A stretch of DNA of 63,336 nucleotides, counting the filler, from Craspedostauros australis (taxonomy: Eukaryota), in the NCBI GenBank assembly GCA_030167865.1. It is 10 parts of 10 records of this genome, joined end to end, with 100 filler letters (N's around TTAATTAATTAA, not from the genome) between each part and the next. Parts side by side here need not be neighbours in the genome. Positions count along the whole stretch, not along the records: positions 1 to 17,494 come from JALAGF010006540.1; 9 more parts are not named here. One strand, given 5' to 3'. The notes beneath the pieces were generated by a model. It searched no databases, had not been told where the DNA came from, and saw only the letters and a list, made by a program, of their open reading frames with translations. Below are positions 1 through 27,267 of the stretch, one piece after another. The position numbers and the translations under genes are program-made. How positions within the stretch are numbered: position 1 is the first letter of the stretch; each line of letters opens with the position of its first letter.

Positions 1-1212
1 AGATACATTGCTGCTGGCATTCCTTACAAAGCAATTCGATCAACGGGGATGGCATTATCGCATCCAACCGCCAAATTCTCCCATCACAAATGTGAAAGAC
101 GAAAGCATATTTCCTGCATTATCAAGACATGTCTCGTCGTCCCAAGGTAAGAACAACGGAAGCCAAATTTTGACAACTGATGCACTGTGGAAGGCCTGCC
201 AACAGTGTTGGGAAAATTTGGAGATGGACAAGGTCGCTCGCGCGTACATCCATCACCATCAAGTGGCGTACGCCATCTTGGAGGCAAAAGGAGGAGATGA
301 ATTCGTCACAAAGAGCAGGGGACTACGTATGGGTGTGCGACAATTGTGCGTTGCATCGAAAGATGAGGATGGAAAAGTGGTTGGCACACGAGTGAAAACG
401 CACGACGAGACTGCTGAGAAGAACAAGATCAAAATGGAGCGTGGACCACGAAACTCGAAGTATGGATTGGATCGCAAACGCAAACGAGACGATGGACACG
501 CGTGTTTGAAGTACTCCACTCCAAGATTCGGTGACGATCGGTCAAGCATCATGAAGATGATGCACTTGTGTGAACTACAATGCATAAAAGATCATATTCC
601 AGAGGACCACTGNGATTCGATCATGATAAGCNGAATCATCAACANCAAACTGGAAGAAGAGAAAAAGGAACGACTCAAGCTGGAAGCGGAACTTGCGGAG
701 AAGAAGAGGACGCCGATTAAGAAGAGCCCCAGCAAGCCAACAAAGAAGATCCCGAGCAAGGCAGCCAAGATGACCAGCAGCAAGCCAGCAAAGAACACCA
801 TCATGGAGACAACACAAAAGGGCATGAGCAAGCCAACGAGGTAAACTATCACACAGACAGGCAGAATGGGCAACACACAGACCCACAGCAGCAACGCCTA
901 CGAGGAGAAGGAAACGAAGTCTATTAGTAGAATTAGAAAAAGCATTAGCATCAAGGAAATAGAGGTGGAGAGGGGACAGGTGTGATGCCATCAGATGATG
1001 ATGGGTGTTCGACAACAACGCAAACCTCTGTTGCTCGGTTTTGTGGGTTGCGACCAGTCACGCCACTGGCCACTCGTTGGTTTTAGAAACTGTAGCGTTG
1101 GGAGCATTGCCGATACTCCCGGGATCATCCAAACACGAGTCATTCTGGCCAGAAAAACAGCAAAAACTCTACAACTAGTGCTATCGGTTTGCCGAGTGAG
1201 TGAGGTGGAAGG
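1..1212 (+). mobile_element. 3' part of a mariner-like DNA transposon, putative terminus ...GAGTGAGGTGGAAGG followed by TA
   Basis: Transposase ORF, then non-coding sequence, then an abrupt switch to copia pol codons exactly at a TA (1213-1214). The other TIR is not in the window. Confidence 0.5.
2..844 (+). CDS. Tc1/mariner (IS630-Tc1-mariner) transposase, C-terminal part; 5' end outside window
   Basis: QPPNSPITNVKD matches the xPPxSPDLxxxD motif carrying the third catalytic Asp. It is followed by LWKACQQCW...AILEAKGGDEF, typical of the mariner C-terminal helices, then a Lys-rich tail. Confidence 0.7.
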   Translation, partial: DTLLLAFLTKQFDQRGWHYRIQPPNSPITNVKDESIFPALSRHVSSSQGKNNGSQILTTDALWKACQQCWENLEMDKVARAYIHHHQVAYAILEAKGGDEFVTKSRGLRMGVRQLCVASKDEDGKVVGTRVKTHDETAEKNKIKMERGPRNSKYGLDRKRKRDDGHACLKYSTPRFGDDRSSIMKMMHLCELQCIKDHIPEDHXDSIMISXIINXKLEEEKKERLKLEAELAEKKRTPIKKSPSKPTKKIPSKAAKMTSSKPAKNTIMETTQKGMSKPTR

Positions 1213-1213
1213 T

Positions 1214-4200: not shown

Positions 4201-4492
4201 CATGATTGACTCAAAACCCATCGCATTCGAGAACTTCAATCCAGAATCGCCCAACCCGGAGATGGTTGCACAGATGAAGGAAGAGTACCCCGAAGCGGCT
4301 GAGGACATTGACGATCAGGCACCAGCAGCGATATATCCTGAGATCCAGATGTGCGCATTCGTCGATGCGGACCATGCTCATGATCTGGTCACGCGGAGAT
4401 CGAACACTGGCATCATCATCTTCCTGGGGCGCACCCCAGTGCACTTCTCCAGCAAACGCCAGACATCAGTCGCAACATCAACATACGGAGCA
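1214..4492 (+). pseudogene. copia pol, first part: end of protease region, integrase, chromodomain-like module, RT, RNase H N-half; one in-frame TGA at 1595-1597
   Basis: ORFs 995-1597 and 1715-4495 share a frame. Integrase VDTDTFFS..LVSDN..QNHAERAI; RT KGRLVAGG, GDVRNAFV, LKKALYGLRSS, THVDDF; RNase H AFVDADHAHD..RRSNTG. Confidence 0.92.
4478..4492 (+). repeat. Target-site duplication, left copy (TCAACATACGGAGCA)
   Basis: Identical 15-mer at 12866-12880 on the other side of the LINE. Confidence 0.95.
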
Positions 4493-4600
4493 TAATACCA
4501 GAATCCGAAAATCCAAAACACACAGTAACAACAATAAAATCCAAATCAGAACACAACAACAATTTCACGGTACTAAGTCTACAGAAGTTTGTACGCAGCC

Positions 4601-7080
4601 ATGGATCGCAAGCAGCCAGCCAAAAAGGTCGTAAAGCAAGTCAGAATTGTAACCGACAAAGCCGACGACAACATGGAGATCGACTCATCGTCCCACGATG
4701 CGCATACCCAACAGACCAAGCCACCGCCAGAGCCAGATCCGAAAGCAAACGAGGAAGCAGAGCTGGAGAAACAAGGATTGATAGGAACAGCATGGAAAAC
4801 ACCCAATGCTTCTCGTTGGAAAAAACTCCCCCAAGAGGTCAGCTCACAGGCCAAAGGATACACGGCAGACGAGGTCTTCGGAGAGGAAGGCAGATCGATG
4901 CACAATGATGTCAAGCAGGCACTAACCCGGAAAGCGATTTGGGAGGACACGAACACCTCGTTGGTGTCGGCGATGGTTCCCTCAGTTCAAGAAGTTTCCG
5001 ACTTTTTCCAGGCAGTGATGGACGGCAGGATCACGAAGCTCGGGAAGGAAAAATTCCGCCCGACGACGCGAACGGAACCAAAATCAAGCAATTGATCGCG
5101 GATCTGTCCCTCACAGATCCCAACAAATGCTTCGGCCCGTCTCCTCAAGGACACAGTCAGGCCACGATGGCGAATCAAATGTCCATCTTGTGGGCGGCAG
5201 CATTCAACCACATGGGCAGCCAATACCAGGAGGAACTGGGACCGCCAGAAGTAGACTCGGACAATGTGCCCATGGACGACGACAGCGATGACAGCAGCCA
5301 CGACCTTGAGGCTCTAATCACCAAGCGTCCCCTTAGACAGTCAAATCTCACAGCCTTTACCACCACCGTCAATGACAAAAAAGCCAAGCGCCCGAAGACG
5401 ACCAAAGCTTCAGCAGGTGCAGCGGCAGCCAAAGTCACAGGTGACGACTCAGCGCAACAAGGCAATGGCGAAGAGGACGCGGATGTTTCAAAATAGCAAG
5501 GGTGGACCACGGTGGAGGCACAAGAGACGCAAATTGGCAACATCAAGCGGCGACACTACGGAAGATTTGAGATGAGACTGAAGATTCCGAAAGGGTCCCG
5601 CACACCAGTTCGCGACTTTCAAGCAAGGTTTGCGCAATGGTGGGAGGAAGCCAAAGAGATGGACAAAAGCTTGGTGATTCGCCCGTGGTACAAGAAGAAC
5701 AAAAAGAAAGGGTGCATCTCCACAACAGAAGGGGTGCCTTCCCAATGGAAAGATCTTCGAGTGTACGTGGGCAAAGCAAATCCAAGCTCCAGAAGCGAGG
5801 ATGTCTACATGCAAATCCTACTGGCGTCCAATGTTGAAATGCAAATCTTCACTAGCCGAAGCACCGAGATGGAAGGGTCCTACGCTGAAGGCGAATACGC
5901 ATACATCCAAGACCTCAAAGACGCAGAACACGTCACAGAGATAGGATTCATGGCATACTCCGGCAACTTCACGAAGGCAAAGCAAGCACTGGAGGTCATC
6001 AACCGGCTTCTCGAGGAAAGCCGAGCCAAGCTCAAAGTGGGGGGAAGAGTCAAATTCATCGGTAAAGTCCAGGAAGACGTCCAGGATGCACACAGAGCCA
6101 ATGGAGGCAGCTGGTACAACGCGCCGTGGATGGCGTTGCATCTCCATGCCGACGTCAAAGACGCGCGCAGAGCATCCAAGCTGTTGGGTCAGATCTTCAA
6201 CAAGAAAGATGCGCCCCGAGGAGGTCTGAACTACCGATACGTCCCTAAGCCGGGTACGTCAGTCATGGGAGCCAAGACCGCCACCAAAGTAAAGGCGATG
6301 ATCAAGAAGCATCAGCGGTATGTGCGGCAGCTCAAGTATGAGCAACTCAAAGGCGACTTCTCGCTCGACGAGCTGGACCCAGAGACAAAGCAGGTCACTC
6401 TTCGGCAATTCCTTGCCACGCAGGTGAAGGAAGGGTGCCCTCTCATCCACGACGTGAGCACGACACACATGGCGGACGGCAAGGACGACGCCATTCACGT
6501 CGTCGCTTTTGGCGAAAGATTTGCCGAGGCAGTGGGCATCATCCACACCATAGCGGTGAGGTGCTCTACGGAAATCAACGAGTCCACAAAAACGTGGTTC
6601 TCCGACGACATCGTGGAGATGAGCTGTCTCATGCAGAAGGACGACAGTGGAGAATATGTCGACACAGAGATGGAGATCGAGATGGACTTCCTGCTTGACG
6701 AAGACTTCGGTGAGGTGCAGATCAACGGCATGGGAATGATAGACGACGACAAGGACACCTCCCCAAGGCGCAAGAAGCCACGACTGGAAGACGAATCGGT
6801 ATACACATTCACCACGGAGCTGGGCAAGTCGGCAGCATCATCGCGGTATACACAACCAGACTCACAAACAGAGGCAGAAGAAATCGAGAATGAACTGGAG
6901 GCAGTAATGAGAGAGGCCAGAAAAGATCAAGAGGCAGAATTCAATCGCAAGAGAGTGCAAGAACAATCGAACGAGATCGCCAGCAAAGATTCAATCATCG
7001 CAGCGTTGCGCGCCCAACTACAGGCGTCCGACTCAGCTCCCCCTGACTCAAGCACGGGAGGGGGTGTATCCAATGAATAA
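4601..7080 (+). pseudogene. LINE ORF1 (~826 aa reconstructed); one -1 frameshift near 5050 and an in-frame TAG at 5494-5496
   Basis: ATG at 4601. ORFs 4939-5496 and 5512-7080 share a frame, separated only by TAG. The C-terminus is acidic and coiled-coil-like. Confidence 0.75.
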
Positions 7081-10000
7081 TGCGAGGCTGGGGGTAGGTG
7101 AAGCATCGCCAACCACCCCCGCAAGCCCAATGGATGCAACACAGGAGGGGACGCGCCAGGAAGGGCAGAACCTCCAGGACCGGCAGTGGGGTGATTCCAC
7201 CAAGACAAAAGGCCGCTCAATATTGAGGATAGCGGCGTTGAACGTGGGATGCCTCCACGCTGAGTCCAACCATTGGAAGAACCGCGACGTATGGCAGTGG
7301 ATTAAACAGCTGAAAATCGACGTGGCGCTTCTATCGGAGATCGGGATCAACTGGGGAAAGATGGGGGGAACGCAGTCATGGAGAGAGATGGCGAAACAAC
7401 AGGTGAACACGGAAAGGCACTCGCTGGCTTATAACAGTCGGGAGAAGTACGGGTCCAAGAAACAGTGGGGAGGAACAGCATGCTCAGTCAATGGAAATGC
7501 CACGGGGCGGGTCGCAGAAAGAGAAGTCGATTCGTCAGGATTGGGCAGGTGGGCCGGCCTCGCGCTGCGGGGCAAGCAAGGCTCCACAGTGAGGATGGTC
7601 TGCGTTTGCGTCCCGACCAAAGGAGGCAGCAGTGCTGGGACCGTATACAACCAGCAAGCCTCGTGGCTGGAGGCGCAGGGCAATGACACCTCTCCAATCC
7701 AGCAGCTTGTGCAGGACTTCGAGATGGCTCTCCAAGGGTGGAAACAATCTGGGGAAACAGTGGTGGTAGGCGGTGACATCAACATGCCAGTTGGTAAGTC
7801 ACAATGGGCCGACATGATGAAGAGACAGGGCATGAAGGAGGCCATCGTCGGTAAGCACCCAGAAGAACCAGGCACATCTACGCACATCCGAGCCCAGTCC
7901 AACAGAATCATCGACGGGATCTGGGTGTCTGAATCCCTGCCAGTCATCCGAGCAGGCTACAGCGCCTTTGGGTCATGGGACCATCGGACGGCGTGGATCG
8001 AGGCTACAGCAGAATCCGTCTTTGGAGTGCAAAGCAAACCAACCCAGAAATTCGAAGGCAGACGAGTTCAGCTAAATCGTCCAAACACGGTGAACAGATA
8101 TCAAACGCGAGTGCGGCAGCAGTACGAGCGGCACGGGATTGGAGCAAGAGTGCAAGCACTACGGGCGACAGTGACCGCAGGACGGCCACTCACCGCTTCG
8201 CAAGTGCAGGAGATCGAGGAAATTGATACGGCGAGAACGGCGGTAGTGCTCGAGGCCGAACGCAAGTCGCGCAGAGTGTTCTTGGGCAACATCCCCTTCT
8301 CCCCGGAGATCAAGAACAAGGCTATGGCGAAGCAGTTCTGGGACTTGGCATGGAAGCGAAGAAACGGAAAAAAGGTCAGCGCAAGGTGGTACGACAGAGC
8401 CAAGAAAAAGGCCAAAGTGACACTACGCACGGCAACTCTGACGGCGGAGGACATCGAACACTGACGCCACCGCGCCCACGCGCAATGGAAACAAGCGCGG
8501 CGAAACGCAGCCGAGCACAGAAAGACCTTCTTGGAGGAACGCGCAGAGGAGGTGGCGCGTGATGGCAAAACAACGGTCGTCACGGCTCTTCAACACATCA
8601 TCAAGAGAGAAGAGGTGGTTTGCACGTTCAAAGCCATACGCAGTGTCATCGGCGAGTATGATGCCAACAGCAAGGTCTCCTTGGTGATAGCCCCCGGCAG
8701 AGACGGAGAGGAGGTGGTCTACGACACAGAGCAATCAGTGATAACGCAATGCATGAAAGCCAACGAAGCGAAATACCGCCAAGCCTACGTGACGCCGTTA
8801 CAGCAGCCCAACTTCGAGCGAGACACCATATCCATGGGGGCGGAACAAGCGAGACGACGACACCGCAGCAAGCTCGGCCAATATGACAACATTATGATGG
8901 AACAAATACTGTCAGGTGACCCACTTCCGTGGGCCAGCCAGCATCTCCACATCACAATGGAGACACACCAACAGCTGTGGTCCAAAGCACGAGAACGAAC
9001 CATGTCTGGTCCGTCTGGTCTGCACTTCGGGCTATGGAAGGCGAACGCTCAGGACGACCAATTGGCGGAAACCGACGCAGCGATGCGAGAGATTTCACTC
9101 AAGACCGGGTACAACTTGCGCCGAAGGCTGCGATGTGAAGACGTGACGCTACTCAAGGAAGCCGGAAACTACCGGGTATCTCGGTTCCGGACCATCAGTC
9201 TGGTTGAAGGCAATTTTAACGCAAACTTGAAGTGGATCGGTAAGATCATGATGCAACATGCGGAGCGACACTCAATGCTTCCAGAGGAGCAGTACGGTAG
9301 CAGGAAGCAACGAAGTGCAGCGGAAGTCAGTCTCAACAACCGTATGACTGATGATATCATCCGCATCACAGGGACCACCAGCGCCATCTGTTCTAATGAT
9401 GCCAAAAGCTGTTATGACCGCATGGCGCACAACCCATTGCGCATGAGCATGGAGAGAATCGGAGTCCCTGAGTGGGTGAGTCGAGGAGTCACAGACGAAC
9501 TGGAAAACATGAAGCACCATGTCCTGACGAGCTTCGGGAGGTCCTTACGAACGTACCCCACGAGGGGGGCGAAGCTTCAAGGCCTGCTCCAAGGCCTCGG
9601 CATATCACCAGCAGGATGGGTAGCGATGAGCTCTCCGCTCATGCAGGCGATGGCTTGGCAAGGCTACGGATTCACATCCGTAAGTCCAGTTTCAAGGACG
9701 ACTACGAGGCTGGTGTGTTTTTCATTTGTCGACGATACCGACCTGATCCACTCGGTGAGGGAAGATGCTTCAAACGCGACGGCATGTGTGGCGGAGGTCC
9801 AAGCTGTGGTAGACGCCTGGGAAGGTATGCTGCGGGCTACAAGCGGAGCTCTGGAACCCCGCAAGAGCTACTTGTACCTCATGGCGTTCTCCTGGGACGG
9901 TGAGAGATGGAAATACAAGTCAGTGGAGGAGCAGCCAGGGGACATCACCATCCGGAAACCTGATAGCGACGCAACATCCAAGCTTCAGAGGCTGCACGTT

Positions 10001-12703
10001 GACCAAGCTCGCAAAGTGTTGGGAGTGATGGTGCGGCACGACGGCGTTCAAAGCAGCAATGAGGAATACTACACACAGAAAGCGGCACAGTGGGCAGACA
10101 AAATGAGACGAGGGAGACTTCTGCGTACGCATGCGTGGATAGCCATGCAGGCAACAATATGGAAGACATTGGAGTACCCACTGCTCAGTTCAACGTTCAC
10201 GAGAGAGGCAGCGGAGCGAATCATGCGGCCAGTCCTCCAAGCAGCATTGCCAGCGTCTGGGATACAACGCAACGTTCCTCGGAAGCTGGTCTTTGGGCCA
10301 TACGAAGGTCTCGGTTTTGGGGTGCATCATCTCTACGACACCCAGATCACGCGGCACATGGAGGCCATCGCTCGGCACTGGGCGGAGCCCAAGCTCACAG
10401 GGAGGCTTCTGCAGACTCAGTTGGAGCTTCTCACTCTGTAAGTGGGAATGCCCCATGTAATGGAGCTCGACTTCGACAAGTGGGGCATGCTTGCAGAGGA
10501 ATCGTGGCTAAAAGCCGTCTGGGCGGAAATCCATGGCGCTGAAATACGCATTCAATGGGAGCAGCCAGTCTTGCATCCTCCTCGCCGACAGGACCAGCCG
10601 GTGATGGATCTCATCATGCAATTGGGGCTCTCCAAGTCAGACCTGCGCGCGGTGAATCTATGCCGACGGCAGAAGCAGGTCCTCTGGGTCTCGGATATCA
10701 CCAACGCCAACGGCGATTCGCTTGTGGCCGACGTCTTGAAACCGGGAGTCACGTCTCTACGCGCGTCGGTACTGAATTGGCCCCCGATGGGCAGGATAGG
10801 TACAGTGAAGTGGCGCGTGTGGGAACATGCAATTCGCCGATGCTTTCCAGCGTCAAGGCCGCCAGTGATAGTTCTGGAAAGACCGCTGGGACCATGGTTG
10901 AGTTATTCCTCGCTACAGCCTCTGGTGTTCCACAACGCAGCTGGAGATCGACTCTTACACCAGCAACGACCAGGGTGCCACTATCGGCGGTTGCCGCGGC
11001 GACGCAGGCAGCAAGTGTACGAGCAGGCAGAGGGAAGTGAATCGGAGGTTCAGGACGCAGTGGACGGATACGAGCGCCACGGGCGTGTCGTGGTCACGGG
11101 TTCTGGGCCAGGTATCGAGCAACCCACGGAGTCGAGACTCGGGTTTCATGAAATGGTGAAGGCGGTGTGCCCGTCCAAATCATGGTCGATACAGGTTTGC
11201 GAAGTTATGGGCGATATCGCGACGTTCTCATTATCACTACGGAATGGCGCTCTCAAGGCATGCAGCGATGGATCAGTTGCCGACGGCAACGGAGCAGCGG
11301 GAGCAGTTCTGCAGGCCCACCACGAAGGCGAATCGGCACGATGCTGGATCGCTTGCCGGGCTCCGGCCACGGATGGCGTCATGCAGTCCCACAGAGCGGA
11401 GCTGGCAGGTCTCTACGGAGTCTTGGTCGTGCTTGAAGTGCTGTGCGGTTCATGTCAGGTCCAGCAAGGGAGCGTCACCGTCGGGTGCGACAACGTGGGA
11501 GCTCTGAAGGCGCTGGACAAGGATTGGTATCTGTCTCCGGCATCGACGGACGCGGATTTGCAGCGAACAGTTCGCAACTTAAGCGTGGAGCTGCCCGTCC
11601 AAATTTGTGGAAAACATGTCAAAGGACATCAAGACGAGAACACGGCGCGGGCCGACCTAGATCAGTGGGCCCGTCTCAATGTGGAGGCAGACCGGCTTGC
11701 TGGAGCGGCGCGAGTGTCCCTGCCCGAGGAGTGTGTATACCAAGGGCACATCTACGGGGAGCGCATGTCGTTTCACCACCGGAGCAAGCTGTCGTCGATA
11801 CGATTTTCCAGTGTCTCCGACAGGAAGGCGGCACAGGAGTCCATCGGAGTCCTTCAAAGGCGGCAGGTGATTCGCGGCGGCGATCAGGTGCACTGGGCGG
11901 CAGTGGCAGGGGCGCTACAAGGCCTCGACCACACCAAGAGGATACTCACTATAAAGCTCATCGCCGGTGAGGCGGCGACAGGCCAGCGCATGAAGCGATG
12001 GGGCCTGAGAGACTCCGACAAGTGTCCCAATTGTGGGGAACAGGAGAGCAGTGAGCATTTCTGGGAGTGTCGGGACCAGGCAAGGGTGAAAGCAGCAGCT
12101 CGTCACATGACAGGCTTAAGAGGCTGGATGCAGAAGTATCCCACGAGCCCCGGTGTTGCACAGGCGATCATATCGGTCCTGCGCAGCCAAGTCGGCGGCA
12201 CGGTGCAATTGCGTCCAGCGGGCATGAGCAAGAGTATGCAAGCGGCGATGGAGAGCCAGGACGCCATTGGCAAAGGGGCCTTGCGGAAGGGTCTGGTCTC
12301 TGCGCAGTGGTGTCTCCTTCAAGACGACTTCCTGCGCAGCCAGGACACGCGAAGGACGGCGCGCCGATGGTCAACGCAGCTCATTCGGAGGATTTGGAAG
12401 ATAGCGTGGGAACAGTGGCAGCTTCGGAACGAAGCACAGTTTCGTCAAGCGGACTCGGCCGATGCTGAAATGGAGCAAGCTATGCGTCAGCGAGTAGCTT
12501 CAATTCGGCAGCGCCTCGAGGGAGACCAACAAGACCACACTCGATTGATCGGCACAGCTCCAGGCGACGACGCGCACGTACCACAGGTCGCGATTTGGCT
12601 CGAGCAAGCTGCGGGGGTGTTGGCGGAGCCAGTTGCTTCTGGCACATTGCTCCGCTGGATCCAGTACAAGCAGCAGGTCCAGCCGGATCCCGGCAAGGGA
12701 TAG
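7073..12703 (+). pseudogene. LINE ORF2 (~1876 aa): AP endonuclease, reverse transcriptase, RNase HI, CCHC zinc finger; in-frame stops at 8462-8464 (TGA) and 10439-10441 (TAA)
   Basis: APE: ALNVG, LLSEIG, GGDIN, IDGIW, DH. RT: EQYGSRK, CSNDAKSCYDR, LLQG, FVDDTD. RNase H: CSDGS, RAEL, GCDN, HVKGHQD, NVEADRLA. Zinc finger: CPNC..EHFWEC. The three ORFs are in one frame. Confidence 0.93.
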
Positions 12704-12853
12704 CGGTGTCGTCTCGAGTGCTAGCACAGCATTACACACACATCAATTACATATCACAGATTCCGTGCCCCCTTCCCGCACGGCGGGAAGTTGAAAGGAG
12801 GCGGAGAAAAGCGCCTACGGCGCAGATGCCATAGAGGTAATCTAATCTTTGCG

Positions 12854-12865
12854 TTATTTATTTAT
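12854..12865 (+). repeat. (TTAT)3 3' tail of the LINE
   Basis: TTATTTATTTAT directly abuts the right TSD. Confidence 0.85.
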
Positions 12866-12880
12866 TCAACATACGGAGCA
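12866..12880 (+). repeat. Target-site duplication, right copy
   Basis: TCAACATACGGAGCA, identical to 4478-4492. Confidence 0.95.
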
Positions 12881-13222
12881 GAATTCAATGCAATGCGCTC
12901 GGCAACCGAGGAAATCATTGCACTCCGATACGCACTCCGATCTCTGGGAGTCACAGTCAAAGCGCCAACGATCACGTTCGGCGACAACAATGCAGTGATA
13001 TCGAACACGACCATTGCAGACAGCTTGCTTCAAAAGAAGCACGTGGCAATCTCGTTCCACAGAGTCCGCGAAGCGGTGGGAGCTGGAATCCTTGTCCCAG
13101 TCTATGTCCCATCGAAGCGGAACTTTGCAGATATGCTCACGAAGGCGCTGGCAAAGCCAGAACTCACATCATTTGTCACAACTCTGTTCTATGCAGGTCT
13201 ACCTCGAGATCAAGGGGCGTGA
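12881..13222 (+). pseudogene. copia pol RNase H, C-terminal half
   Basis: EFNAM..LRYALRSLG..FGDNNAV..KKHVAISFHRVRE..NFADMLTKAL. Confidence 0.93.
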
Positions 13223-13390
13223 CAATTCTCACAGAATTCTTTACTTCTTACTTCTCTACTAATCCCATTAGTCAAATACTGGTCGGGGGCTGTCTTCGGA
13301 CAGCACTCACAAATAAACAACAAGAGCTCCGACCAGGGCACGAAACAACGGGCCAATACGTCTTTCGTAGTTACTTGCACTGTTTGACAA
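13206..13390 (+). repeat. Polypurine tract and start of the copia 3' LTR (TG at 13220); LTR end not resolved
   Basis: GAGATCAAGGGGCG|TGACA at the pol stop; AATAAA near 13312. There is no 5' LTR in the window to compare. Confidence 0.55.
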
Positions 13391-13705
13391 AGAGAAGGAG
13401 ACAAACACAGGCAAACAGAAGGAGGAGACCATGCGAACAAGACAACAACACACACACCACCCAACCCCATACTCAACCGCGTGAACATCAGACATCGAGT
13501 TGCCACTCATATTCATCACACAGCGTATGGTACTCATACTCATACTAATACTAATACTAATACAAGCTGTTGCATACACAAACATCGATATCTCTTCCAT
13601 AGGCAGCTCCGACCACAGACATCCTCGACAGCCAATCCAACGTAAATCGTCCAACGTCCAACATCTATCGTCCAGCAACCATCGACCATCCACCACACTC
13701 TCAAA

Positions 13706-15654
13706 ATGCCGAGTGTTACGAACGAACAACTCATTGATGCTGCCAAGGCAGGTGACTTGTCAGTGTTGAAGGAGGGGAAGAAGCAGAACAAGACGCAGAA
13801 TGAAAGAGTTAATGTCAACAAGGTTACAGGCTGGCTTGGTCGCACTCCCCTTCATTGGGCATGCTACAACGGCCACCTGGAGTGTGTCAAGTACCTCATC
13901 AAATCATGTGGAGCTGACATCAACTGCCAAAACAACTATGGTTCCACTCCCCTTCATCTGGCATGCTGGAACGGCCACCTGGAGTGTGTCAAGTACCTCA
14001 TCGAATCATGTGAGGCGAACATCAACTGCAAAGACAACGATGGTTCCACTCCCCTTCATCTGGCATGCTGCCACAGCCACCTGGAGTGTGTCAAGTACCT
14101 CATCGAATCATGTGAGGCGGACATCAACTGCAAAATCAACGATGGTCGCACTCCCCTTCATCTGGCATGCTGGAACGGCAAGCTGGAGTGTGTTGTGTAC
14201 CTCATCGAATCATGTGAGGCGAACATCAACTGCAAAGACAACGATGGTTCCACTCCCCTTCATCATGCATGCATGAACGGCCACCTGGAGTGTGTCAAGT
14301 ACCTCATCGAATCATGTGAGGCGGACATCAACTGCAAAGACAACGATGGTCGCACTCCCCTTCATCGGGCATGCTACAACGGCCACCTGGAGTGTATCGA
14401 GTACCTCATCGAATCAGGTAGGGCTAACATCAACTGTCAAAACAACCGAGGTTCCACTCCCCTTCATCGGGCATGCTACAAGGGCCACCTGGAGTGTGTG
14501 AAGTACCTCATCAAATCAGGTGGGGCGAACATCAACTGTCAAAACAACCGAGGTGAAACTCCCCTTCGTTGGGCATGCACGCGTGGCCACCTGGAGTGTA
14601 TGGAGTCCCTCATTAGAGGACTTTCACCTTCAGCTCACCCACAACTGCAGCAACACTTACAACAAAACGAACAAGCAAATGAACAACCACAAGAACAGCT
14701 GAGACAGCAGTTGAAGCGAAAGAGCCAAGAGAATGAACACAAACACAGCAGCAACAAGAGGACCAACATCAGCATTGGAGAAGGCCGGCCCAGATCCTTC
14801 CAAACCGAGAACAGGGCAGACACCATCTTCTTGTGTGGACAGGGCGACCAACAACAACCAATCAAGGCAAACTCTGGAGTCCTCATGATCGCTGCCCCAT
14901 CCATTGAGACACTGATCGACAAAGGAATCCAGCATCAGCACGCGAATGATGACACCGGAGACGGCGCGGCTCCATCCAAACAACCATCCCTCTCCCCAAC
15001 CTCCAACCAAGGCACGTCCGATACGTCCTCCAATGCATCTACACAGGCAAGATATCCTTGAATGACAGCGCTCGTGACAACGCCGCCACTCATATCGGTG
15101 CTCACGCCAACGCTCGCCACGATACAGATGCCTCTCACCAGCCAACTCCCATCCTCACTGGACAGGATGATCTGCAACAGCTGATCCTTGTGGCCAACGA
15201 GTTTGGCTTCTGACGACTCAAGCTTGTTCTTGAATCAGAGCTAGCGCACAAGCATTTCACAGAAGACAGCATGATAGATGTGTTGATATTCGCTCATCAA
15301 CACAACTGCGTGGTGTTGAAGGATATGGCGATGAGAATGGCAGCTGAAAGTGATAAAGATATGTTCACTCATCCAGATTTCAGCAAGCTGATTCCACACC
15401 ATCAACTGCTGGGAGGCATTCATGTCCTCCGTAGTGGGGGAGCGGAGAGTGATGGAGTTGATGATGAGTACAGCCACATGTCCATGGTGGAGCTGTACAA
15501 GGTTATGGATCAGGATGATGGTACAGCACAAGTGGATTCGTACATGGATCGGGCAACATTGGTGGACCTCGTCCGTTCCATGAGAACCAGCTCCACGAGA
15601 GCCAATGGATCCGAAGTGATTGTGGTGGACGGCACTGCCGAGGAAGAGGAGTGA
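13706..15654 (+). pseudogene. Ankyrin-repeat + BTB/POZ(-BACK-like) protein, copy 1; ANK part open, BTB disrupted (1-bp deletion near 14972, TGA at 15211-15213)
   Basis: Eight 34-aa ANK repeats and a Q-rich linker, then ADTIFLCG..IKANSGVL..(shift)..VRYVLQCIYTG..LILVANEFG..LKLVLESEL..VLIFAHQHNCVVLKD, a SPOP-like BTB/BACK pattern. The lesions are inferred from the paralog at 58102-59894. Confidence 0.8.
13838..14620 (+). repeat. Tandem 102-bp ankyrin-coding repeats (7 full + 1 partial), high nucleotide identity
   Basis: The GGT-NNN-ACTCCCCTTC motif recurs at 13838, 13940 and every 102 bp up to 14552. Confidence 0.95.
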
Positions 15655-15849
15655 AGTGTCAGACCATACCAAATCATAACAGAAATCTTCAAGAAGTGAA
15701 CGCATGACAGAATTGAGTCGACGGATAGAAATAGTCGTCAGAATAGTCATTAGGATAGAATCTGTGTGAAAGGAGGTGGAGCAATTTATGATCGATTCAT
15801 TGAATGGTGCGTCCGCCATGCCTTCACCGTCGCCTTTGGTGATGTGCAC

Positions 15850-16839
15850 AGCATGCTGCTCTGCATGCTGCTCTATCCACTCCTGTATCGTTCACAGCAC
15901 GGTCTGGCTAATCCGCGAGAGACGCATGATCTTCTGTGAATGAATTGCAGATGATCCCGGTTGGTGTAAGGCACGTTGGTGTGCAGCATCAGTGGCCAAT
16001 GCGACAGGAAGAAGATGATTCAGCCACCGCTGTCATCGTCGTGGTCGTCATTGCCGATCATATGGTTTCCGCGTTCGTTGGTGTCGATGATGTGAGCGGA
16101 GTTGTGTGGGAAGCTATGGTGGACCTCGCGGGCGTCATGCATGGCTTGTAGAACTCGAATCCAACGTGACGGAGCGGGATGTACCACGGCTGTCAGCTTG
16201 TTGGTGGTGGTGGTGCTGCAGTTCGTGCATGATGTCGCGCAGGGCACAAGCGCATGCCAACAGCTGCTGTATGGTTTTCGATATGGCGGACCAAGATGAT
16301 GAGCCATGGGAGAAGTTGCCAACGTCATTGTACACGATTTCAATAATGGTGGATCCGATGATAGCATGCCTCTATCTCATCGTTTGCGGTTTGTGGCAGA
16401 GATGCATCGCTTCGAGCATCGGTATGAGCAGGCGTGGCTGGTTGTGGTGCGTATAGTGGGGACTGAGGAACATCTCCAAACTGATGGCTCTGCAGGTCTC
16501 GGGAAAGTCGCTGCATCCGATCTCACAGATGCACCTGTCCAACATGTGCTGAATCTCCGTTTCAGACAACGCATCGTACGTTTATGTGCGTGCGCGCGGC
16601 TGATGACTTGAATCCAGACCGCACCATGGGCCATGACATGTCTTGCCATTGCTGTTGGCTCTGTTGTTGGCTCTGCGATTTCACATGTCCCAAGCTCTCC
16701 TCTACTCCGGAGCAGTTGGTGTGATATCTTCCTTTCTGATGTCGCTGAGCGATGCGACACGTTTGAGATCGCTGTTCGTCACCGCTTGGCATTCATCATC
16801 GGCATCAGCGTCATCGGCATCGTCATCGTCTCATGCCAT
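15850..16839 (-). pseudogene. Decayed ORF of unknown function; 3' end approximate
   Basis: From ATG 16839 one frame reads MA*DDDDADDAD..LKRVASLSDIRKED.. and joins ORFs 16372-16569 and 16135-16335. It has about 7 stops, each one C-to-T change from an Arg or Gln codon. Confidence 0.45.
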
Positions 16840-17494
16840 GGTCGCCTTCGTTGATTCTATTGGCGTGTCACGTTTTTCGCAGCCGCCGCTTGCTTGATTA
16901 CTTCATTGCTGTGTTGCTTCGCTGATTGCTGCTTGACAGACAATGTCTCAGTGTTGGCTGATACCTCCATCAATGCAAACAAAGTCAAGCCATTTCATCT
17001 CTCTCTCTCTCTCTTTTGTGTTGATGTTGATGTTGTTTGATGAATCATGGGTGCAAAATCGAAGATTCGTTGTTTTGGATGGTGTCAAGAATTGTTGGCG
17101 CGTTTGGCGAGTACTCGTCTGTCTGCCATCCGTTGTTCATTCAACCAATGATACACACAAACACTCACAACCAACATCACCTCTCTGTTGTCTTCATTCG
17201 ACACAACTCTGTTCGACGATGGTGATGGTGATGGCGATGGCGATGGCGATGGCAACCACTCCAATGACGCCGCATCCCTTCACAATTGGTACCACCACCA
17301 ACAACACAAGCACAAACAAACAGACAAGATGATGAGACATCGACATCCAAGAGGATCTGTGGGAAGGCTCGCCAGTTGCTCCATGCCTTGACCCACCCGT
17401 CGTACGACTATGAGTATTGCTATGGAACCTTCCATGAGTACGATCTACTCTGGGAGTTGCCACAGCAAAGCGTCCAGCCTGATACTCTGTTCGA

Positions 17495-17594
17495 NNNNNN
17501 NNNNNNNNNNNNNNNNNNNNNNNNNNNNNNNNNNNNNNTTAATTAATTAANNNNNNNNNNNNNNNNNNNNNNNNNNNNNNNNNNNNNNNNNNNN
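17495..17594. other. Artificial scaffold linker N44-TTAATTAATTAA-N44; also at 23241, 27168, 37479, 52829, 54485, 56615, 59895 and 61472 (100 bp each)
   Basis: The same six-frame-stop 12-mer is centred in Ns nine times. Confidence 0.98.
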
Positions 17595-20307
17595 GGACCA
17601 TCACCACGGCATGATCCTTTCGCGGATCAGGGATGCCGGTGGCGGCGACGTAGCAGTCACCGACGGTCTCGACCTTGAACACACGACGGGCCTTGGCGAT
17701 CTGATCGAAGGAAGAGAAGATCTTCTCCAGGAACGTGAACACCTGGGATGGCTCACGGACGGAGCTCCAGGCGGTGAAGCCTGCGATATCCGCGAACAGG
17801 ATCGTCGTGTCAAGGAACAGATCAGCCATGGGACGTGAGTCCATGCCAGAACCCTCAATGTCTCCGGCCAGGAAGCTCTTGAGGCCGGAGATTTGGCTGG
17901 CAACGCCCTTGTTTTTTCCTGCCTGACTGTTGGTGATGAGTCGATCGCGGATGTTTCGCGGGAAGAGGGACGAGACGATGGCGTTGGACTTGGCCGCATT
18001 CTCGACCAGTCTTTCGTTGCGGCGGTAGACGAAGAGGTCGTAGATGAAGAAGACGACCGCAACGAAGACGAATGTACAGCACACGATGATGGCGAATATC
18101 TCCGGAGTGAACTTGTCGTATGGTTGCTGGAAGTCGCGGGAGGGGTAGAGGAACATTGAGTACTGGCAGTGTCCTGGGGTGGTTGCGAAGTCTGCATGAT
18201 CGTTGAGGGCGAGGTCGACCTTTCGTTCGTAGTTGTTGTACTTTGGGTCATGCAGGTCACCTGGTGGTTGTGCACGATGAATGGGGATGGAAAACGTAGA
18301 TCAAAGATGGAGAAAGTAGAAGACACGAAGACACGAAGACACGAAGAGAGCGAGGATGGTAGAAAGAGAAGCAAGCATACGTTTGAGCGAGATCGCGCGA
18401 AGCACTCCAGGGCACACACGCACGGGGAGTGTGACGTAGCGAACAGATGTGAAGGCACTTTGTCAAGAGTGAAGCGAATGGCATGGAGGCGAAGCGAGTG
18501 GCAACACTTACCGTTTCCCTCGAAGATGGCATCACCGCCATTGATGACATAGGTGTAGGATTGGTTGCAGTCNNNNNNNNNNNNNNNNNNNNNNNNNNNN
18601 NNNNNNNNNNNNNNNNNNNNNNAGGATTGGTTGCAGTCGTTCTTGATGACAGCGTAGAGGCCCTTGACGTTGGAAGGGAGTAGATCCTTCAGTGCAGCGT
18701 CCCATGTAGCTCCGCCACCCAACATAGCGACGATTTTGGAGTTGTAGTCTCCAACTTTCTCGTGGACTGGGTGGAACGCGAAGCTGTGTGGATGTTCGGT
18801 GCTGGAATCTTTCAGTTTGGCATGCATGACCTCGTGCTCTTCTTGTGTAAAGCCGATGCCTGCTCCAATGTACTTGCGGACGTTTGAAATGATGGTTTGG
18901 TTCTTGAGCGCGAAGATTGCTTTGGACACCAGATCATAGTCAGGTATGGAGAATGCGTTCCAGTTCACGAAGCCGTAGGTGAAAGTTGCTGGAGCGTTCT
19001 CCCAGAGCGGGAAGTAGTAGTCACGCTTGATGTCCTCCACGAAACCAGCGGGGGACGGGCGCGTGACGTACGGGTGAAAGCCAACTGGCTTCAGTTTGTC
19101 CAGGTTTCCGTTTTGTTCGATGTGGTCACCTTGGACCATTTTATCGTGTCTTTCGGTGGTGTAACTGGCCCACTCCTCCAGCTGGTCGTGCTCCACACGA
19201 TGAAAGCAGGCAACAACTTCCATGGGCGTTTGCTCCAGGAAGGTCTGGGCAAATGTTATGTAGTAGTCGATGGATACGAATGGCCATGTTTGGTTGGTGA
19301 CCTGTGCCGCCGCTGTTATTGAGTTCGCCAGTCCCCTGTACCCCGTGCGGAGAGCTCGTTGCTGATCGACAGCAGCATCTCCGACTGTTCTGGAGAATTG
19401 CTTGAACTGCGCGCACGAAGGTGGAAGGTGTGGATCGTCGTGATCGCGTGGGTATCAGCCAAGTGCGATGATAAATCAGCATCCATACGTTGTTACCAAG
19501 AATTGTGATGGTGAAGAGCGCACCATCACATGGTTGTCAAATGGTGAGGAAAGTTGGGACAAGATAGGGATGGAGTGAGATGACATGGCGGGTGACATCG
19601 AGCCATGGAGTGTCGTTCATCGGCGAAGCAGCAGACGGATTATCTGAGCTAATTTTGCAGCGAGCGAGGATTTGCTCTTTTCTCTCGTGAGACACTTACG
19701 GCAGTTTCGAAGTTCTCGTCTTGTTCATCTTGGAGGAACTGTTGGCGACAGCGATAGATTGTGAGAAGTCAAGATGAAAGGATGCGTGTGGTAGACAAAA
19801 TAGTGTATGAGCAGCAGTAAGGTTGCACGGAAGATTGGGTGGACGGAATGGTTTAGTGCATGAGACGCAAAGACTGAAATGGTCACGGTCGTCATGGGCA
19901 TCGGTATCGGCGTGAACAGGATCGTTTTTTGTTGTTGCTATCGTCCTTGTCATCGTGCATGGTGGTGCGGTGACAATGAAGATGGAGACGCGCGGGATCA
20001 AGGAGCCTCAAGCCTTCTCAGCGTTTGGTGTGTAGAGCATGCGGCGCATGTCACACGTAGTATGCTTCGTGGAACTTACTGTGTATGTAGTCCAGGTGAC
20101 CGTGACTGCTGTTGCCAGAAGAGCACCTGTGACCATCAACCTCCACAATCGAATGTTCAGTGTATCTTTCTTGGCTACGTTGCGGACGGCCTGAAGTTCA
20201 TCGCCCTCTTCGGATACGGAGTCCACGCGGCCTTCGCTTGCCGAGTGAGCGGTAGATTTGATCGACATCTGATCGTCCATAGTTCCGACGCTGAAGCTTC
20301 TCCTCAT
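17595..20307 (-). CDS. Receptor-type class III nucleotide (guanylate) cyclase, 3'-truncated by scaffold end; exons 20307-20080, 19738-19700, 19406-18512, 18260-17595
   Basis: GT-AG introns keep the frame. TM - extracellular domain (TWPFV) - TM - IVSSLFP linker - TILFADIAGFTAWSS..FKVETVGDCYVAATG; the KVETxGD Glu is the guanylate-cyclase-type residue. Confidence 0.9.
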
Positions 20308-23111: not shown

Positions 23112-23340
23112 CGGCGACTCAAAGGACTAGCCCAAATACGCTTTACGAGAAGCCGTTTTTTTTTCAAACCCTTTTTCGCTGGCCATCTCGACTCACGACA
23201 TGACTCATGTCTTATATCGATAATAATCGCTGCAGTTGTGNNNNNNNNNNNNNNNNNNNNNNNNNNNNNNNNNNNNNNNNNNNNTTAATTAATTAANNNN
23301 NNNNNNNNNNNNNNNNNNNNNNNNNNNNNNNNNNNNNNNN

Positions 23341-26300
23341 GTGGACGACTGCACGGATCACTGCTGGAGTTTCTTTCTCAAGAACAAGAGTGATCAACCA
23401 GGATACATCAAACGATTCGTCCAGACGATCAAGTCACAGACTGGTGACCAACAGATCACCTTCCGAGGTGACAACAGCGGAGAGAACCAATCCACGGAGG
23501 ATATTCTCATCGATGCAGGACTCAACGTGAAATTCGAATACACGGCATCGAACACGCCGCAACAGAACGGTAGAGTAGAACGCAAGTTCGCGTACCTCTA
23601 CACCAAGATCCGCTCCATGCTCAACGGAGCACAGCTCAACGAAGAGTATAGGCATGGCCTATGGGCAGCAGCTACGAGCACTGACACCGCCATCGCCAAC
23701 ATCACCGTATTGAAGAACCAAAAGGAGTCACCACATCGACAATTCTTCGGCAACGATCCACCATATGCGGATGCACTCCGTACATTTGGAGAAGTGGGTG
23801 TTGTGAAGACTACCTACGGCAGGATCACCGCCAAACTCAAGAATAGAGGAGAAGAGATGGTGTTCATCGGATATGCACACCAACACGCATCAGGGGTCTA
23901 CAACATGTACAGACCATCAACCAAGTCACTAATCTGCTCACGTGATATCAAATGGCTCAACCAATCATACGGACAGTTCCGTGGCTGGGCACCAGCACCG
24001 AACATATCCAACGAAGCAGGAACAACGGTCGCAGACGGCTTCACGACCATCGGACGGAAGGGAGCATTGCCAAGGACGGCAACGCGTCGAACATCAGAAG
24101 CGAAGAGAGTGTCTTTCACCAACATGAACAAGTATCACATCCTATCAGACAGCGATGATGAGGATGATCAGGACGATGGAGCAGTAACCCAACTAGTCTA
24201 TAACGACGACGAAGATCGGAACGAATCCAATCATGAGGATGACAAGATCACACCATCCAGCGACGAAGCCAAAGATGATACAGGCATCACTCCTCCGAAC
24301 ACACCAGCGAGGTCTACACATGACACACCATCCAGACCTCCACCGAGCAAACCAAACAAGCGTGACATAGCTAGAAAGGAGAGAATCCAACGTCATAAAG
24401 CATGAGGCAGGAAGGGAGAAACCAATCCCAAGTCAACTGCAGGGAAGAGTGTTCCCAGAGCTCTGCGTGAGCTTGCAGACTTCAACGAACAAGGTCGAGA
24501 GGAAGAGGGTTATGAGAGCAAGTCATCATCCAATGACGATAGTGACGAACTGAGCGATGAGGTAACCGACGAGTCCAACAACGAAACTACAGATGACGAA
24601 GAAATCGAAGACGAAGATGAAGAGATCGAGATCACTCATCATAGCACAACAGGACTATACGGGATGAACGCAATCATCACTGAAGCACCAGCAATCGACA
24701 TCGGACTGTCGATGCAGGACAAGAACAAGGAACCAGAGAAGCACATCGAACCAACAACATTCGATGGAGCCTTCAATTACCCAGATCCCATCCATCGAAA
24801 GGGATATCAAGCAGCCATCAAGAAGGAGTTCGACTCCATGGATACACGCAAGGTGTACAGCAGGATCAAACGAGACGCCATCCCACGCGGCCGCAGATGC
24901 TGCAAATGCAAATGGGTCTTCAAGCTGAAACGCGACGGCACACATCGAGCGCGGCTCGTTGCATGTGGCTATTCACAAATCGCAGGAGTAGACTTCCAAG
25001 AGCATTACTCACCCGTCATCCACGACGTGACCTATCGGGTCATGATGGTGATCATGCTGATCAAGAAGATGGACTGCGCACTCGTCAATGTCATAACGGC
25101 ATTCCTACACGGAGACCTCGACGAAGAGATCTACATGAACTGTCCCAATGGGATGGATCATCAACCAGACGAAGCTCTGACCCTACATAAGCCAATCTAC
25201 GGACTTGTGCAGAGCGCCAGGCAGTGGTTCAAGATGTTGGTATCGACCCTCAAGAATATCAACTTCGAACAGAGCGCAGCGGATCCGTGCCTGTTCTACA
25301 GGAAGGCAAACAAAGGAAGCACGATCATGGCCATCTACGTGAACAATTGCTTCTGTTGCGGAGACTCCAAGGCACTGGAGACATTCCTGAAGGACATCCA
25401 AGGCAGCAAATTCAAGGTAACAATCCAGCGTGGACTCGGAGACTACCTCAGCTGCAACATCAAACTGAACCATGACAAGACCAGAGCGACATTGCGTCAA
25501 CCACATCTCATCCGACATCTCATCGAAGAGTTCGGAACCAAGGTTGAGAAGATGCAACGCTATGCAACACCGGGAACCCCAAGTCAAATCATTGTACGAC
25601 CATCCAAAGATAACGGACTGCAGAAGGTCGGACCGGAAGAACATGCCGAATATCGCCGAGGCGTCGGTATGCTACTCTTCCTCATCAAGCACTCGCGACC
25701 AGACATCGCGAACCCTGTGAGAGAGCTCTGCAAGGTATTGATCGGGCCCACCAAGGCTGCAATGAAGGAGATGTATTGGATCATCAAATATGTGATCGAT
25801 ACAAAGGACTATGGATTGAAGATCCATCCAGTGCGTCCAGACGACGACGGCTGGGACATGGAGCTCTTCTGCNNNNNNNNNNNNNNNNNNNNNNNNNNNN
25901 NNNNNNNNNNNNNNNNNNNNNNGATACAAAGGACTATGGATTGAAGATCCATCCAGTGCGTCCAGACGACGACGGCTGGGACATGGAGCTCTTCTGCGAT
26001 AGCGAACATGCAGGGGACAAGAACACGAGAATCAGTGTAGGAGGGTTCATCCTATACCTGTGCAAGGTGCCAACCCTTTGGCGATCCAAGGCACAGAAGG
26101 CCGTCACACTCAGCTCATCCGAAGCAGAATACGTTGCCCTTTCCNNNNNNNNNNNNNNNNNNNNNNNNNNNNNNNNNNNNNNNNNNNNNNNNNNNNNNNN
26201 NNNNNNNNNNNNNNNNNNNNNNNNNNNNNNNNNNNNNNNNNNNNNNNNNNNNNNNNNNNNNNNNNNNNNNNNNNNNNNNNNGCGGCACATCGACGTGCGC

Positions 26301-27125: not shown

Positions 27126-27267
27126 GAGAGACGCACCAAGAGCATCAGGCAGAGCAACAAGAGGCACNNNNNNNNNNNNNNNNNNNNNNNNNNNNNNNNN
27201 NNNNNNNNNNNTTAATTAATTAANNNNNNNNNNNNNNNNNNNNNNNNNNNNNNNNNNNNNNNNNNNN

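Follow-up and report, generated by a model that had tools for sequence, protein, structure and literature searches.

We examined a 63,336-nucleotide stretch of the genome of the diatom Craspedostauros australis (GenBank assembly GCA_030167865.1; "the window" hereafter means the whole of this stretch) and found in it two related gene copies that encode ankyrin (ANK) repeats joined to a BTB domain, copy 1 on the plus strand at 13706-15654 and copy 2 on the minus strand at 58102-59894. The interpretation we favour, and consider fairly probable, is that both are decayed copies belonging to a large diatom family that is restricted to its lineage, evolves by birth and death, probably supplies adaptors to Cullin-3 (Cul3) ubiquitin ligases, and has been under diversifying selection. 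The order of domains is N-terminal cap, ankyrin array, linker, BTB domain, BACK-like region and conserved C-terminal module. An earlier sequence-only reading of copy 1 had proposed a diversifying BTB family with a fixed repeat scaffold and variable binding codons, likened to the NOD-like receptors (NLRs) of fungi. Its central observation was confirmed and its interpretation in part supported; the copies in the window are not intact, and the family is not an NLR.

The coordinates proposed for copy 1 do run from a start ATG to a natural stop, at 15652-15654, but the reading frame between them is interrupted twice. The features of copy 1 are given below; P0001 is the closest relative found in the protein database.

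13706-13837, plus strand: start codon and N-terminal cap (open reading frame, ORF, from the ATG at 13706; tblastn, 59% identity to P0001 residues 1-66)
13838-14653, plus strand: eight 102-bp (34-codon) ankyrin units, A1-A8 (Tandem Repeats Finder, Pfam, structural model)
13841-13843, 13856-13858, 13865-13867 and 13937-13939, plus strand: hypervariable codons 2, 7, 10 and 34 of unit A1 (add 102 bases for each later unit)
14654-14799, plus strand: linker rich in Gln, Glu and Lys (alignment of both copies; start of BTB placed approximately)
14800-15213, plus strand: BTB domain, broken at two sites (ORF frames, alignment to copy 2, tblastn, Pfam)
15214-15654, plus strand: BACK-like helical region and conserved C-terminal module (Pfam scores below cut-off, family alignment, fold of P0001)

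The repeat arrays are highly regular. Tandem Repeats Finder reports the array of copy 1 at 13843-14613 with a period of 102, without indels and with 87% matches over 7.6 copies; on the opposite strand it reports period 102 at 59196-59385 and 59446-59894, and also period 204 with 92% matches, so that copy 2 has a two-unit super-period of 204 bp. Pfam finds eight ankyrin stretches in copy 1 (Ank_4, E = 1.5e-100; Ank, E = 3.5e-92), which places them in CL0465. We set the register of the unit at G-x-TPLH-x-AC-x and tabulated 12 complete and 4 partial units from the two genes. In all units read, 13 of the 34 codons never change. Against this background six different codons occur at codon 2 (R/S/E/D/L/W), seven at codon 7 (W/L/H/R/Q/V) and seven at codon 10 (Y/W/C/M/T/H/R), and many of the alternatives are separated by two or three bases. 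These are exactly the residue sets that the sequence-only reading had listed before TPLH, after TPLH and after AC; to them we add a fourth variable site absent from that list, codon 34, with four codons (Y/D/R/N). Its description of the units as nearly identical in DNA was somewhat overstated, since whole units average 86% nucleotide identity (78% at the amino acid level), although the difference outside codons 2, 7 and 10 is only 8.6%. Units A2-A5 are more alike, at 91.5% and 87%.

The variable codons map to the ligand-binding face of the ankyrin fold. Residues 1-330 of copy 1 were modelled by AlphaFold from the single sequence; the model, with a mean predicted local distance difference test (pLDDT) score of 86.1, has a helix pair in every unit and cap helices at residues 6-15 and 18-29. 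Unit A8 acts as the C-terminal cap and continues into the linker. Codons 7 and 10 lie on helix 1, three residues apart, and the turn before it holds codons 2 and 34. When the register is converted to 33-residue numbering, anchored on G4 and T6-P7 after the C-cap sequence of PMC4308713, codons 2, 7, 10 and 34 become ankyrin positions 5, 10, 13 and 3. Natural ankyrin repeats have their highest entropy at positions 2, 3, 5, 10 and 13; the ANK-N5C library randomised these five plus position 33, and the randomised positions in beta-turn 1 and helix 1 form one continuous surface (PMC4308713). Designed ankyrin repeat proteins (DARPins) likewise bind through randomised positions on the concave surface (PMC8229355). 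Of the six library positions, 3, 5, 10 and 13 are the most variable codons here, position 2 is invariant and position 33 alternates between K and Q only. The earlier proposal that the variable sites occupy the beta-turn and helix-1 face, mostly at positions randomised in DARPins, thus agrees with the model of copy 1 and with the published library, four of the sites being library positions.

Several counts indicate that change is concentrated at these sites. In the 12 complete internal units, 3 of the 34 codons receive 18 of the 50 minimal base changes (binomial p = 1.2e-7). Mean p-distance is 0.552 over the nine hypervariable bases, compared with 0.086 over the remaining 90 bases of the scaffold and 0.090 over third positions of the scaffold, and in pairwise comparisons pN is 0.636 at codons 2, 7 and 10, whereas the other 31 codons have a pS of 0.133 and a pN of 0.100. 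A conservative count that requires no phylogenetic tree, in which every distinct codon arises once and codons are joined by a minimum spanning tree, places 17.5 non-synonymous changes on the 7.2 non-synonymous sites of codons 2, 7 and 10 (2.44 per site) and 8.7 synonymous changes on the 19.2 synonymous sites of the scaffold (0.45 per site). The ratio of the two rates is 5.4 (conditional binomial p = 2.2e-5), which puts dN/dS at the variable sites above 1; the sequence-only reading had named a value of 1 or less as grounds for rejecting it, and that is not what the counts show. Because the three codons had been picked after the data were seen, the test was repeated with five pre-set codons, ankyrin positions 2, 3, 5, 10 and 13 of the published library design; 21.8 of the 40.8 minimal non-synonymous changes fall in these 5 of 34 codons (p = 6.7e-9). 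By these counts the pattern fits diversifying selection on the repeats, as the sequence-only reading had supposed when it spoke of rapid diversification.

It might be argued that no diversifying selection is required, and that in young tandem duplicates the four least-constrained surface sites simply drift freely, the more so once the genes are pseudogenes. We judge this unlikely, although the four sites are indeed the highest-entropy positions of natural ankyrin repeats (PMC4308713), both copies are broken, scaffold dN/dS is fairly high at about 0.7-0.75, and the tests draw on just 12 to 16 units with a post hoc choice of three sites. Neutral sites cannot outpace synonymous sites, as the hypervariable codons do in the per-site count (2.44 against 0.45) and in p-distance (0.552 against 0.090 at scaffold third positions). 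Decay after the death of a gene would also spread evenly over the unit, whereas 31 of 34 codons are conserved and the assembled units of both copies contain no stop codon. Nor does the spectrum of changes resemble decay: CpG-type transitions make up only 6 of the 42 differences from consensus at the hypervariable sites, and transversions (22) are about as frequent as transitions (20). It follows that CpG decay, which the sequence-only reading had named as an explanation that could overturn it if spread evenly along the repeat, is not the cause.

Mutagenesis by a diversity-generating retroelement was considered separately and rejected, given that the changes are not adenine-specific, a template repeat is lacking and the host is a eukaryote.

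Comparisons between the two copies bear on how the units evolve. A7 and B7, both penultimate and so matched in position, show 6 differences among the 9 hypervariable bases and 9 among the 93 others (Fisher p = 2.4e-4). Between copies, some pairs of units are separated by 1-3 of 90 scaffold bases but by 5-6 of 9 hypervariable ones. The scaffolds of A5 and B3 differ at 1 of 90 bases, and those of A2 and B3 and of A5 and B1 at 2 of 90, while each of these three pairs differs at 6 of 9 hypervariable bases and the tails of the same two genes are 12% apart. Judged from the sequences, near-identical scaffolds combined with divergent contact codons are what concerted evolution together with selection for diversity would predict. 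All that is unusual in these genes is that the contact codons stand out against a scaffold kept uniform down to its silent positions.

The tail of the genes has a different history. Over 340 codons the tails of copies 1 and 2 have a dS of 0.326, a dN of 0.116 and a dN/dS of 0.36, with similar values across the linker (0.31), the BTB domain and the C-terminal part. This degree of constraint indicates that both copies descend from working genes and died fairly recently, and the BTB/BACK tail appears to have been under purifying selection until then.

We identified the tail as BTB/BACK mainly from the intact relatives. BTB (PF00651) scores above its Pfam cut-off in 7 of 9 family proteins, at 24.0-34.4 bits, and P0001 (20.0) and P0005 (19.5) fall just short. 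Over the window copies and the nine relatives, BACK and BACK_BPM_SPOP remain under their cut-offs, at 17.3-22.2 bits compared with 20.9 and 27.4. The fold was tested on the intact relative P0001 rather than on the broken window copies, with an AlphaFold model built from a 14-row family alignment; pLDDT is 81-91 in most BTB/BACK blocks and below 50 in the part that matches the linker, which in copy 2 is 51 bases longer than in copy 1. With this model Foldseek returned 53 matches at E <=0.001, led by the BTB domain of SPOP (E = 2.2e-7, TM 0.80 on the target) and including full-length SPOP, the KEAP1 BTB domain, the KBTBD2-CUL3 complex, KBTBD4 and, at rank 48-50, NPR1. The alignments extend over 218-250 columns, those to full-length SPOP and KBTBD2 included. 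The BTB domain postulated in the sequence-only reading is therefore present in the relatives, by Pfam in 7 of 9 and by the likeness of the P0001 fold to SPOP, KEAP1 and KBTBD2/4. All top structural matches of P0001 are Cullin-3 adaptors. The family probably consists of Cul3 substrate adaptors. The nearest protein-atlas cluster for the tail, taken as a lead only, is a Bacillariophyta BTB/BACK_BPM_SPOP cluster (score 0.91) in which 23% of members carry BACK_BPM_SPOP. The tail ends in a module conserved in the family alignment, DDEYS...MSM.ELYK...SYMDR..L..VRS, for which a Pfam scan of the window copies and relatives gave no match.

As assembled, both copies have nonetheless lost the ability to encode a complete protein. 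Copy 1, which is free of N over 13706-15654, lacks one base at about 14969-14973 (a gap at column 462 of the alignment to copy 2), and the resulting frameshift lies inside the BTB domain; the tblastn match of P0001 to copy 1 splits at 14974-14998. An in-frame TGA follows at 15211-15213, where relatives carry Trp (GFWRLKL). An intron was rejected as the cause of the frame break, since both copy 2 and the transcript-derived P0001 are continuous there. A code in which TGA specifies Trp was also rejected, because the copies have TGA in adjacent but different codons and copy 2 has TAA and TAG as well. The features of copy 2 are as follows.

59155-59894, minus strand: ankyrin units B1-B8 (Tandem Repeats Finder, unit table)
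58102-59154, minus strand: linker, BTB and BACK-like tail, pseudogene (frame walk; 88% identity to copy 1)
58954-58956 (TAA), 58576-58578 (TAG), 58540-58542 (TGA), 58435-58437 (TAG) and 58147-58149 (TGA), minus strand: premature stops (frame walk)

The natural stop of copy 2 is at 58102-58104, and the frame walk revealed no frameshift in its assembled tail. A single colinear tblastn match to P0001 residues 30-366 implies that copy 2 has no intron. That copy 2 is a pseudogene is beyond reasonable doubt. Its five premature stops all fall within about 284 tail codons, and none falls in the roughly 293 assembled codons of the ankyrin array and linker; this distribution may reflect chance, or it may mean that the dead array is still being overwritten by gene conversion from live copies.

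To place these genes in a family, we searched 1.84 billion representative sequences by HMMER with the BTB fragment of copy 2 as the query and a cut-off of E <=0.001. Twelve proteins were returned, eight of which have the ANK-linker-BTB-tail architecture or its tail. Four others, P0002, P0009, P0010 and P0012, were not accepted as members: they are long and were taken as unrelated, their source names point to a giant protein of a sponge and a LamG protein of an archaeon, and Pfam finds bacterial Ig, cadherin and LamG domains in P0009 and P0010. The named members are all entered as "BTB domain-containing protein" from Craspedostauros australis or from one MMETSP sample, and the rest are unnamed JGI records, so the nearest relatives are diatom-derived, as the sequence-only reading had it. 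P0001 shares 77% identity with the copies over the linker and the start of BTB and 73% over the C-terminal part. It was the one relative found among 58 candidates when the linker and BTB start were the query, and again among 551 candidates when the query was the C-terminal 146 residues. A search with the ankyrin part brought in no further homogenised arrays, 7264 of the 8000 proteins scored being generic ankyrin proteins and none of the best 120 exceeding 52% identity. Metagenome and viral contigs, searched with a five-sequence alignment, gave 168 and 24 pattern matches, none of which was confirmed as a relative, and a degenerate 29-base unit pattern had 0 matches in the metagenome contigs.

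The sequence-only reading had also allowed that it would be undermined if the family had no intact, expressed member. The window copies are both broken, but intact transcript-derived relatives exist (P0001, P0003, P0008, P0011 and P0013), all of them confined to records of Craspedostauros australis type and none with a long homogenised array. The single ankyrin unit of P0001 may be real or may be a collapse in transcript assembly. In a sister subfamily, three near-identical proteins that form one 90% cluster (P0137, P0008 and P0136) differ in their arrays: P0137 has exactly two extra 34-residue units relative to the other two, which carry different units. At the level of sequence these differences suggest gain and loss of units; path choices by an assembler would give a similar result.

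A public run, X1, provides a further view of the size of the family. At identities of at least 88%, 1311 of its 30,610 contigs align to 13300-16000; 230 of these have identities of at least 99%, 394 of 95-99%, 536 of 90-95% and 151 of less than 90%. From about 13573 to 15756 the summed depth runs into the thousands; it is about 5 in the spacer at 13391-13572 and 70-95 beyond 15757. No contigs of two other runs, X2 and X3, were placed on the stretch. Depending on what kind of run X1 is, either the family has a great many diverse members or many of its variants are expressed at very high levels. Among the 40 best-supported of 136 variant letters, those located in the array affect codons 2, 10, 11, 12 and 24 of the units. 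Five X1 contigs link the cap with later units, skipping a net 405, 408, 510, 510 and 612 bases; four of these skips are exactly 4, 5 or 6 units and the fifth is within 3 bases of such a multiple.

Data of this kind raise the question of whether the arrays are assembly artefacts, that is, consensus or chimeric paths through hundreds of family members, with the diversity of units and the lesions both produced by short-read assembly of repeats. An N-run scan shows that the window is a chain of contigs and not a continuous chromosome, with nine joiners, each of 44 N, 12 bases and 44 N.

17495-17594, 23241-23340, 27168-27267, 37479-37578, 52829-52928, 54485-54584, 56615-56714, 59895-59994 and 61472-61571: joiner spans

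The joiner at 59895-59994, at which the 12-base spacer was read, consists of 44 N, TTAATTAATTAA and 44 N; it is artificial and bounds copy 2. The remainder, beginning at 17495, 23241, 27168, 37479, 52829, 54485, 56615 and 61472, have matching paired 44-N runs 12 bases apart. Gaps of 50 N occur inside scaffolds besides the joiners. One such gap, at 59396-59445, interrupts the array of copy 2, which ends at the contig end at 59894. Copy 1 is on the piece 1-17494 and copy 2 on the piece 56715-59894, and with the two on separate contigs a gene cluster or shared neighbourhood is not demonstrated. A gappy draft assembly of such a repeat also makes the number and order of units insecure.

We nevertheless regard an artefact as decidedly improbable. 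In its favour are the gapped chain of contigs, the truncated array of copy 2, and the behaviour of the X1 variant contigs, all 1311 of which fit the stretch and 362 of which fit two places, while some skip from the cap by about 4, 5 or 6 units. Copy 1, however, is N-free throughout, and codons 2, 7 and 10 lie within 27 bases, so that each combination is supported within one read or k-mer. Even with the units in the wrong order, the family as a whole would still show a uniform scaffold and variable contact codons, and the variant letters of X1 strike the same codons.

Large DNA viruses commonly carry ankyrin and BTB families (see also PMC3185573). The genes of the window could accordingly be imagined as cargo of a mobile element or as an insertion from a giant virus, multiplied by the element. 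Copy 1 does lie a few hundred bases downstream of nested retrotransposons (1-13390), and the apparent copy number is very high. This origin seems to us extremely improbable. In X1 the low-depth spacer at 13391-13572 parts the retroelement from the gene, and the homology of copies 1 and 2 ends within a few bases of the stop codon with no shared flank. The relatives found are ordinary diatom transcripts, whereas none of the 24 pattern matches in viral contigs was confirmed.

The explanation we favour, a diversifying family of adaptors, can be put as a sequence of steps. Unequal crossing-over and gene conversion, both within and between copies, would keep the units alike and reshuffle them, and selection would favour novel contact residues. 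The BTB/BACK end, probably dimeric, would dock on a Cullin-3-type ubiquitin ligase, and whatever the ankyrin face binds would by that docking be ubiquitinated. Copies would be born and die rapidly, and both of those seen here are dead. Plausible classes of ligand would be fast-evolving foreign or selfish proteins, such as those of viruses, parasites and transposons, and partners in mating or self-recognition.

The mode of repeat evolution has its closest known counterpart in fungi. The ankyrin, TPR and WD repeats of fungal NLRs have high internal conservation, polymorphism in repeat number and positive selection on the concave face; such highly conserved repeats, for which the criterion is an internal identity above 85% over at least 100 residues, are rare elsewhere, making up 0.4-1.2% of repeats in plants, animals and dikarya (PMC4986451). 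Like the fungal NLR-type (STAND) receptors, for example Podospora Pa_3_8560 and HET-E/D (Dyrka et al. 2014, PMC4986451), the genes described here have units of 33-34 residues that are similar at the DNA level, a few hypervariable or positively selected positions on the concave face formed by the beta-hairpin and inner helix, and hints of unit reshuffling and of differences in unit number. They differ in that the partner domain is BTB/BACK on the C-terminal side, the host is a diatom, and internal conservation is lower (78% at the amino acid level overall, reaching 87% in four units only). Pfam finds only ANK, BTB and BACK, and no NOD domain (NACHT or NB-ARC), in the window copies and in the nine relatives, and for lack of a NOD domain the family is not an NLR. 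The comparison to fungal NLRs made in the sequence-only reading is accordingly apt for the way the repeats evolve (PMC4986451) and does not extend to the class of protein.

The MATH-BTB and F-box families of Caenorhabditis and grasses offer a second comparison, in which selection acts on the substrate-binding and not on the cullin-binding domain and has been read as defence against foreign proteins (Thomas 2006, cited in PMC4334554). These too are lineage-expanded adaptors (BTB adaptors in the MATH-BTB case) with birth-and-death turnover, many dead copies, a selected substrate-binding domain and a conserved cullin-binding end (PMC4334554). In the genes of the window the substrate-binding domain is an ankyrin array instead of MATH, binding to Cul3 is inferred, and diversity is concentrated in four codons of a homogenised repeat, whereas in the MATH-BTB and F-box families it is spread over a globular domain. 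As in DARPins and ANK-N5C, a fixed scaffold carries variable positions 3, 5, 10 and 13 on one continuous surface (PMC4308713); unlike them, this array is natural, has 34-residue units, does not vary at positions 2 and 33, includes Cys-rich residues in its scaffold and is joined to an effector domain. Ankyrin repeats and BTB also share one polypeptide in plant NPR1/BOP and animal ABTB1/ABTB2/BTBD11, but these are small, conserved families that lack homogenised or hypervariable repeats, and in NPR1 the order, BTB then ANK, is the reverse. Beyond the shared domains, our searches of HMMER representatives and solved structures found no sequence relationship to proteins of the NPR1/ABTB type.

What such a family would do is a separate question. 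Diatoms rank among the major primary producers, and viruses, bacteria, oomycetes and chytrids all attack them, yet few candidate intracellular non-self receptors are known from the group. The family may plausibly serve in defence. A stronger version, which we offer tentatively as a possibility of lesser weight, is that this diatom lineage has an intracellular recognition system of hundreds of ankyrin-BTB genes in which recombination deals out four contact residues per unit, giving a germline combinatorial repertoire of binders wired to Cullin-3 destruction of viral, parasite or transposon proteins. Real diversifying adaptors might also serve mating, gamete recognition or some other endogenous process in place of defence, to which we attach little likelihood. 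The benthic diatom Seminavis robusta has BTB/POZ families with reproduction-biased expression and signs of amino-acid diversification (PMC7335047), but the likeness of our genes to those families is one of description only, and the very many variants and many dead copies in our judgement fit an arms race better.

In either role the family would be of interest. It is a concrete candidate for a class of non-self receptor in diatoms or, alternatively, for a mate- or self-recognition system, and it would carry the combination of concerted evolution and diversifying selection on repeats, so far found mainly in fungal NLRs, to a new architecture and a new supergroup. If the recognition system proposed above is real, its combinatorial ankyrin-BTB repertoire would constitute a class of immune receptor separate from both NLRs and TRIMs, with no earlier candidate of the kind in diatoms. 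Among the papers listed by our searches on diatom ankyrin and BTB expansion and on the Craspedostauros australis genome, supplements aside, we came across no account of such a diatom family.

A number of facts weigh against the interpretation of the window copies as relics of a diversifying adaptor family. In the present assembly both are pseudogenes, and the window contains no working receptor. The draft is gappy, the array of copy 2 is interrupted and runs off its contig, and units of different family members may have been co-assembled. The evidence for selection consists of count-based tests on few and related units; the sample is small and its members are not independent, coming from two genes in one of which B3, B5 and B7 share the same hypervariable codons, and the three codons were chosen post hoc, whereas the five fixed beforehand depend on our own mapping of 34 to 33 residues. 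Variability at these positions is by itself ordinary, as the same positions vary across all ankyrin proteins (PMC4308713). The criterion of more than 85% amino acid identity is reached by A2-A5 only (87%, 136 residues), the whole arrays standing at 78%. On the side of the tail, the BTB fragments of the window, split by the frameshift and the stops, score 19.1 and 17.8 bits, just under the Pfam cut-off of 20.5, and BACK (17.3, cut-off 20.9) and BACK_BPM_SPOP (17.9, cut-off 27.4) also fall short. The P0001 model of BTB is of moderate quality only (mean pLDDT 65.7), and a sequence search of solved structures with a profile of the tail was not significant (best match KBTBD2, E = 0.16). The sole close relative in the protein database, P0001, has one ankyrin unit. 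Finally, whether X1 is RNA or DNA is a guess; we took it as RNA.

Other features of the window were noted in passing. Upstream of copy 1, the nested retrotransposons at 1-13390 (plus strand) include a Copia-type polyprotein with RVT_2 in 1598-4495, whose C-terminal end apparently resumes at 12841-13222; a second element, with RVT_1 (8465-10441) and a long ORF (10442-12703), seems to interrupt it. The end of the retroelement, at 13300-13390, has high depth in run X1. A second Copia-like element, in which RVT_2 (E = 1e-38) accompanies a retroviral SH3-like integrase domain, lies at 23293-25944 on the plus strand. On the contig that follows copy 2, a segment of about 545 bp is present as a tandem duplicate at 59995-61100 (minus strand), and each duplicate has an ORF starting MSKEEELKDIPLSNPTIKQEEGASETPPQPQKEEGA (59947-60303 and 60475-60846).

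An internal contrast to the homogenised arrays is provided by 39542-43813 (plus strand), an open frame of 1423 residues that is nearly all ankyrin repeats (Ank_2, E = 2e-227, 23 stretches) and is cut near its end by a 50-N gap. Its units are diverged, and Tandem Repeats Finder calls no repeat in it. At 34374-34959 a 12-bp unit, GCCGTCATCCAC, is repeated 48.8 times, with periods of 72 and 84 also reported; this microsatellite-like array is in coding frame within an 849-residue ORF at 32530-35079 that has no Pfam match. Lastly, the ORF at 17539-18156 (minus strand) contains a stretch, FADIAGFT...VETVGDCY, which by eye we take to resemble the catalytic core of class III adenylate/guanylate cyclases.

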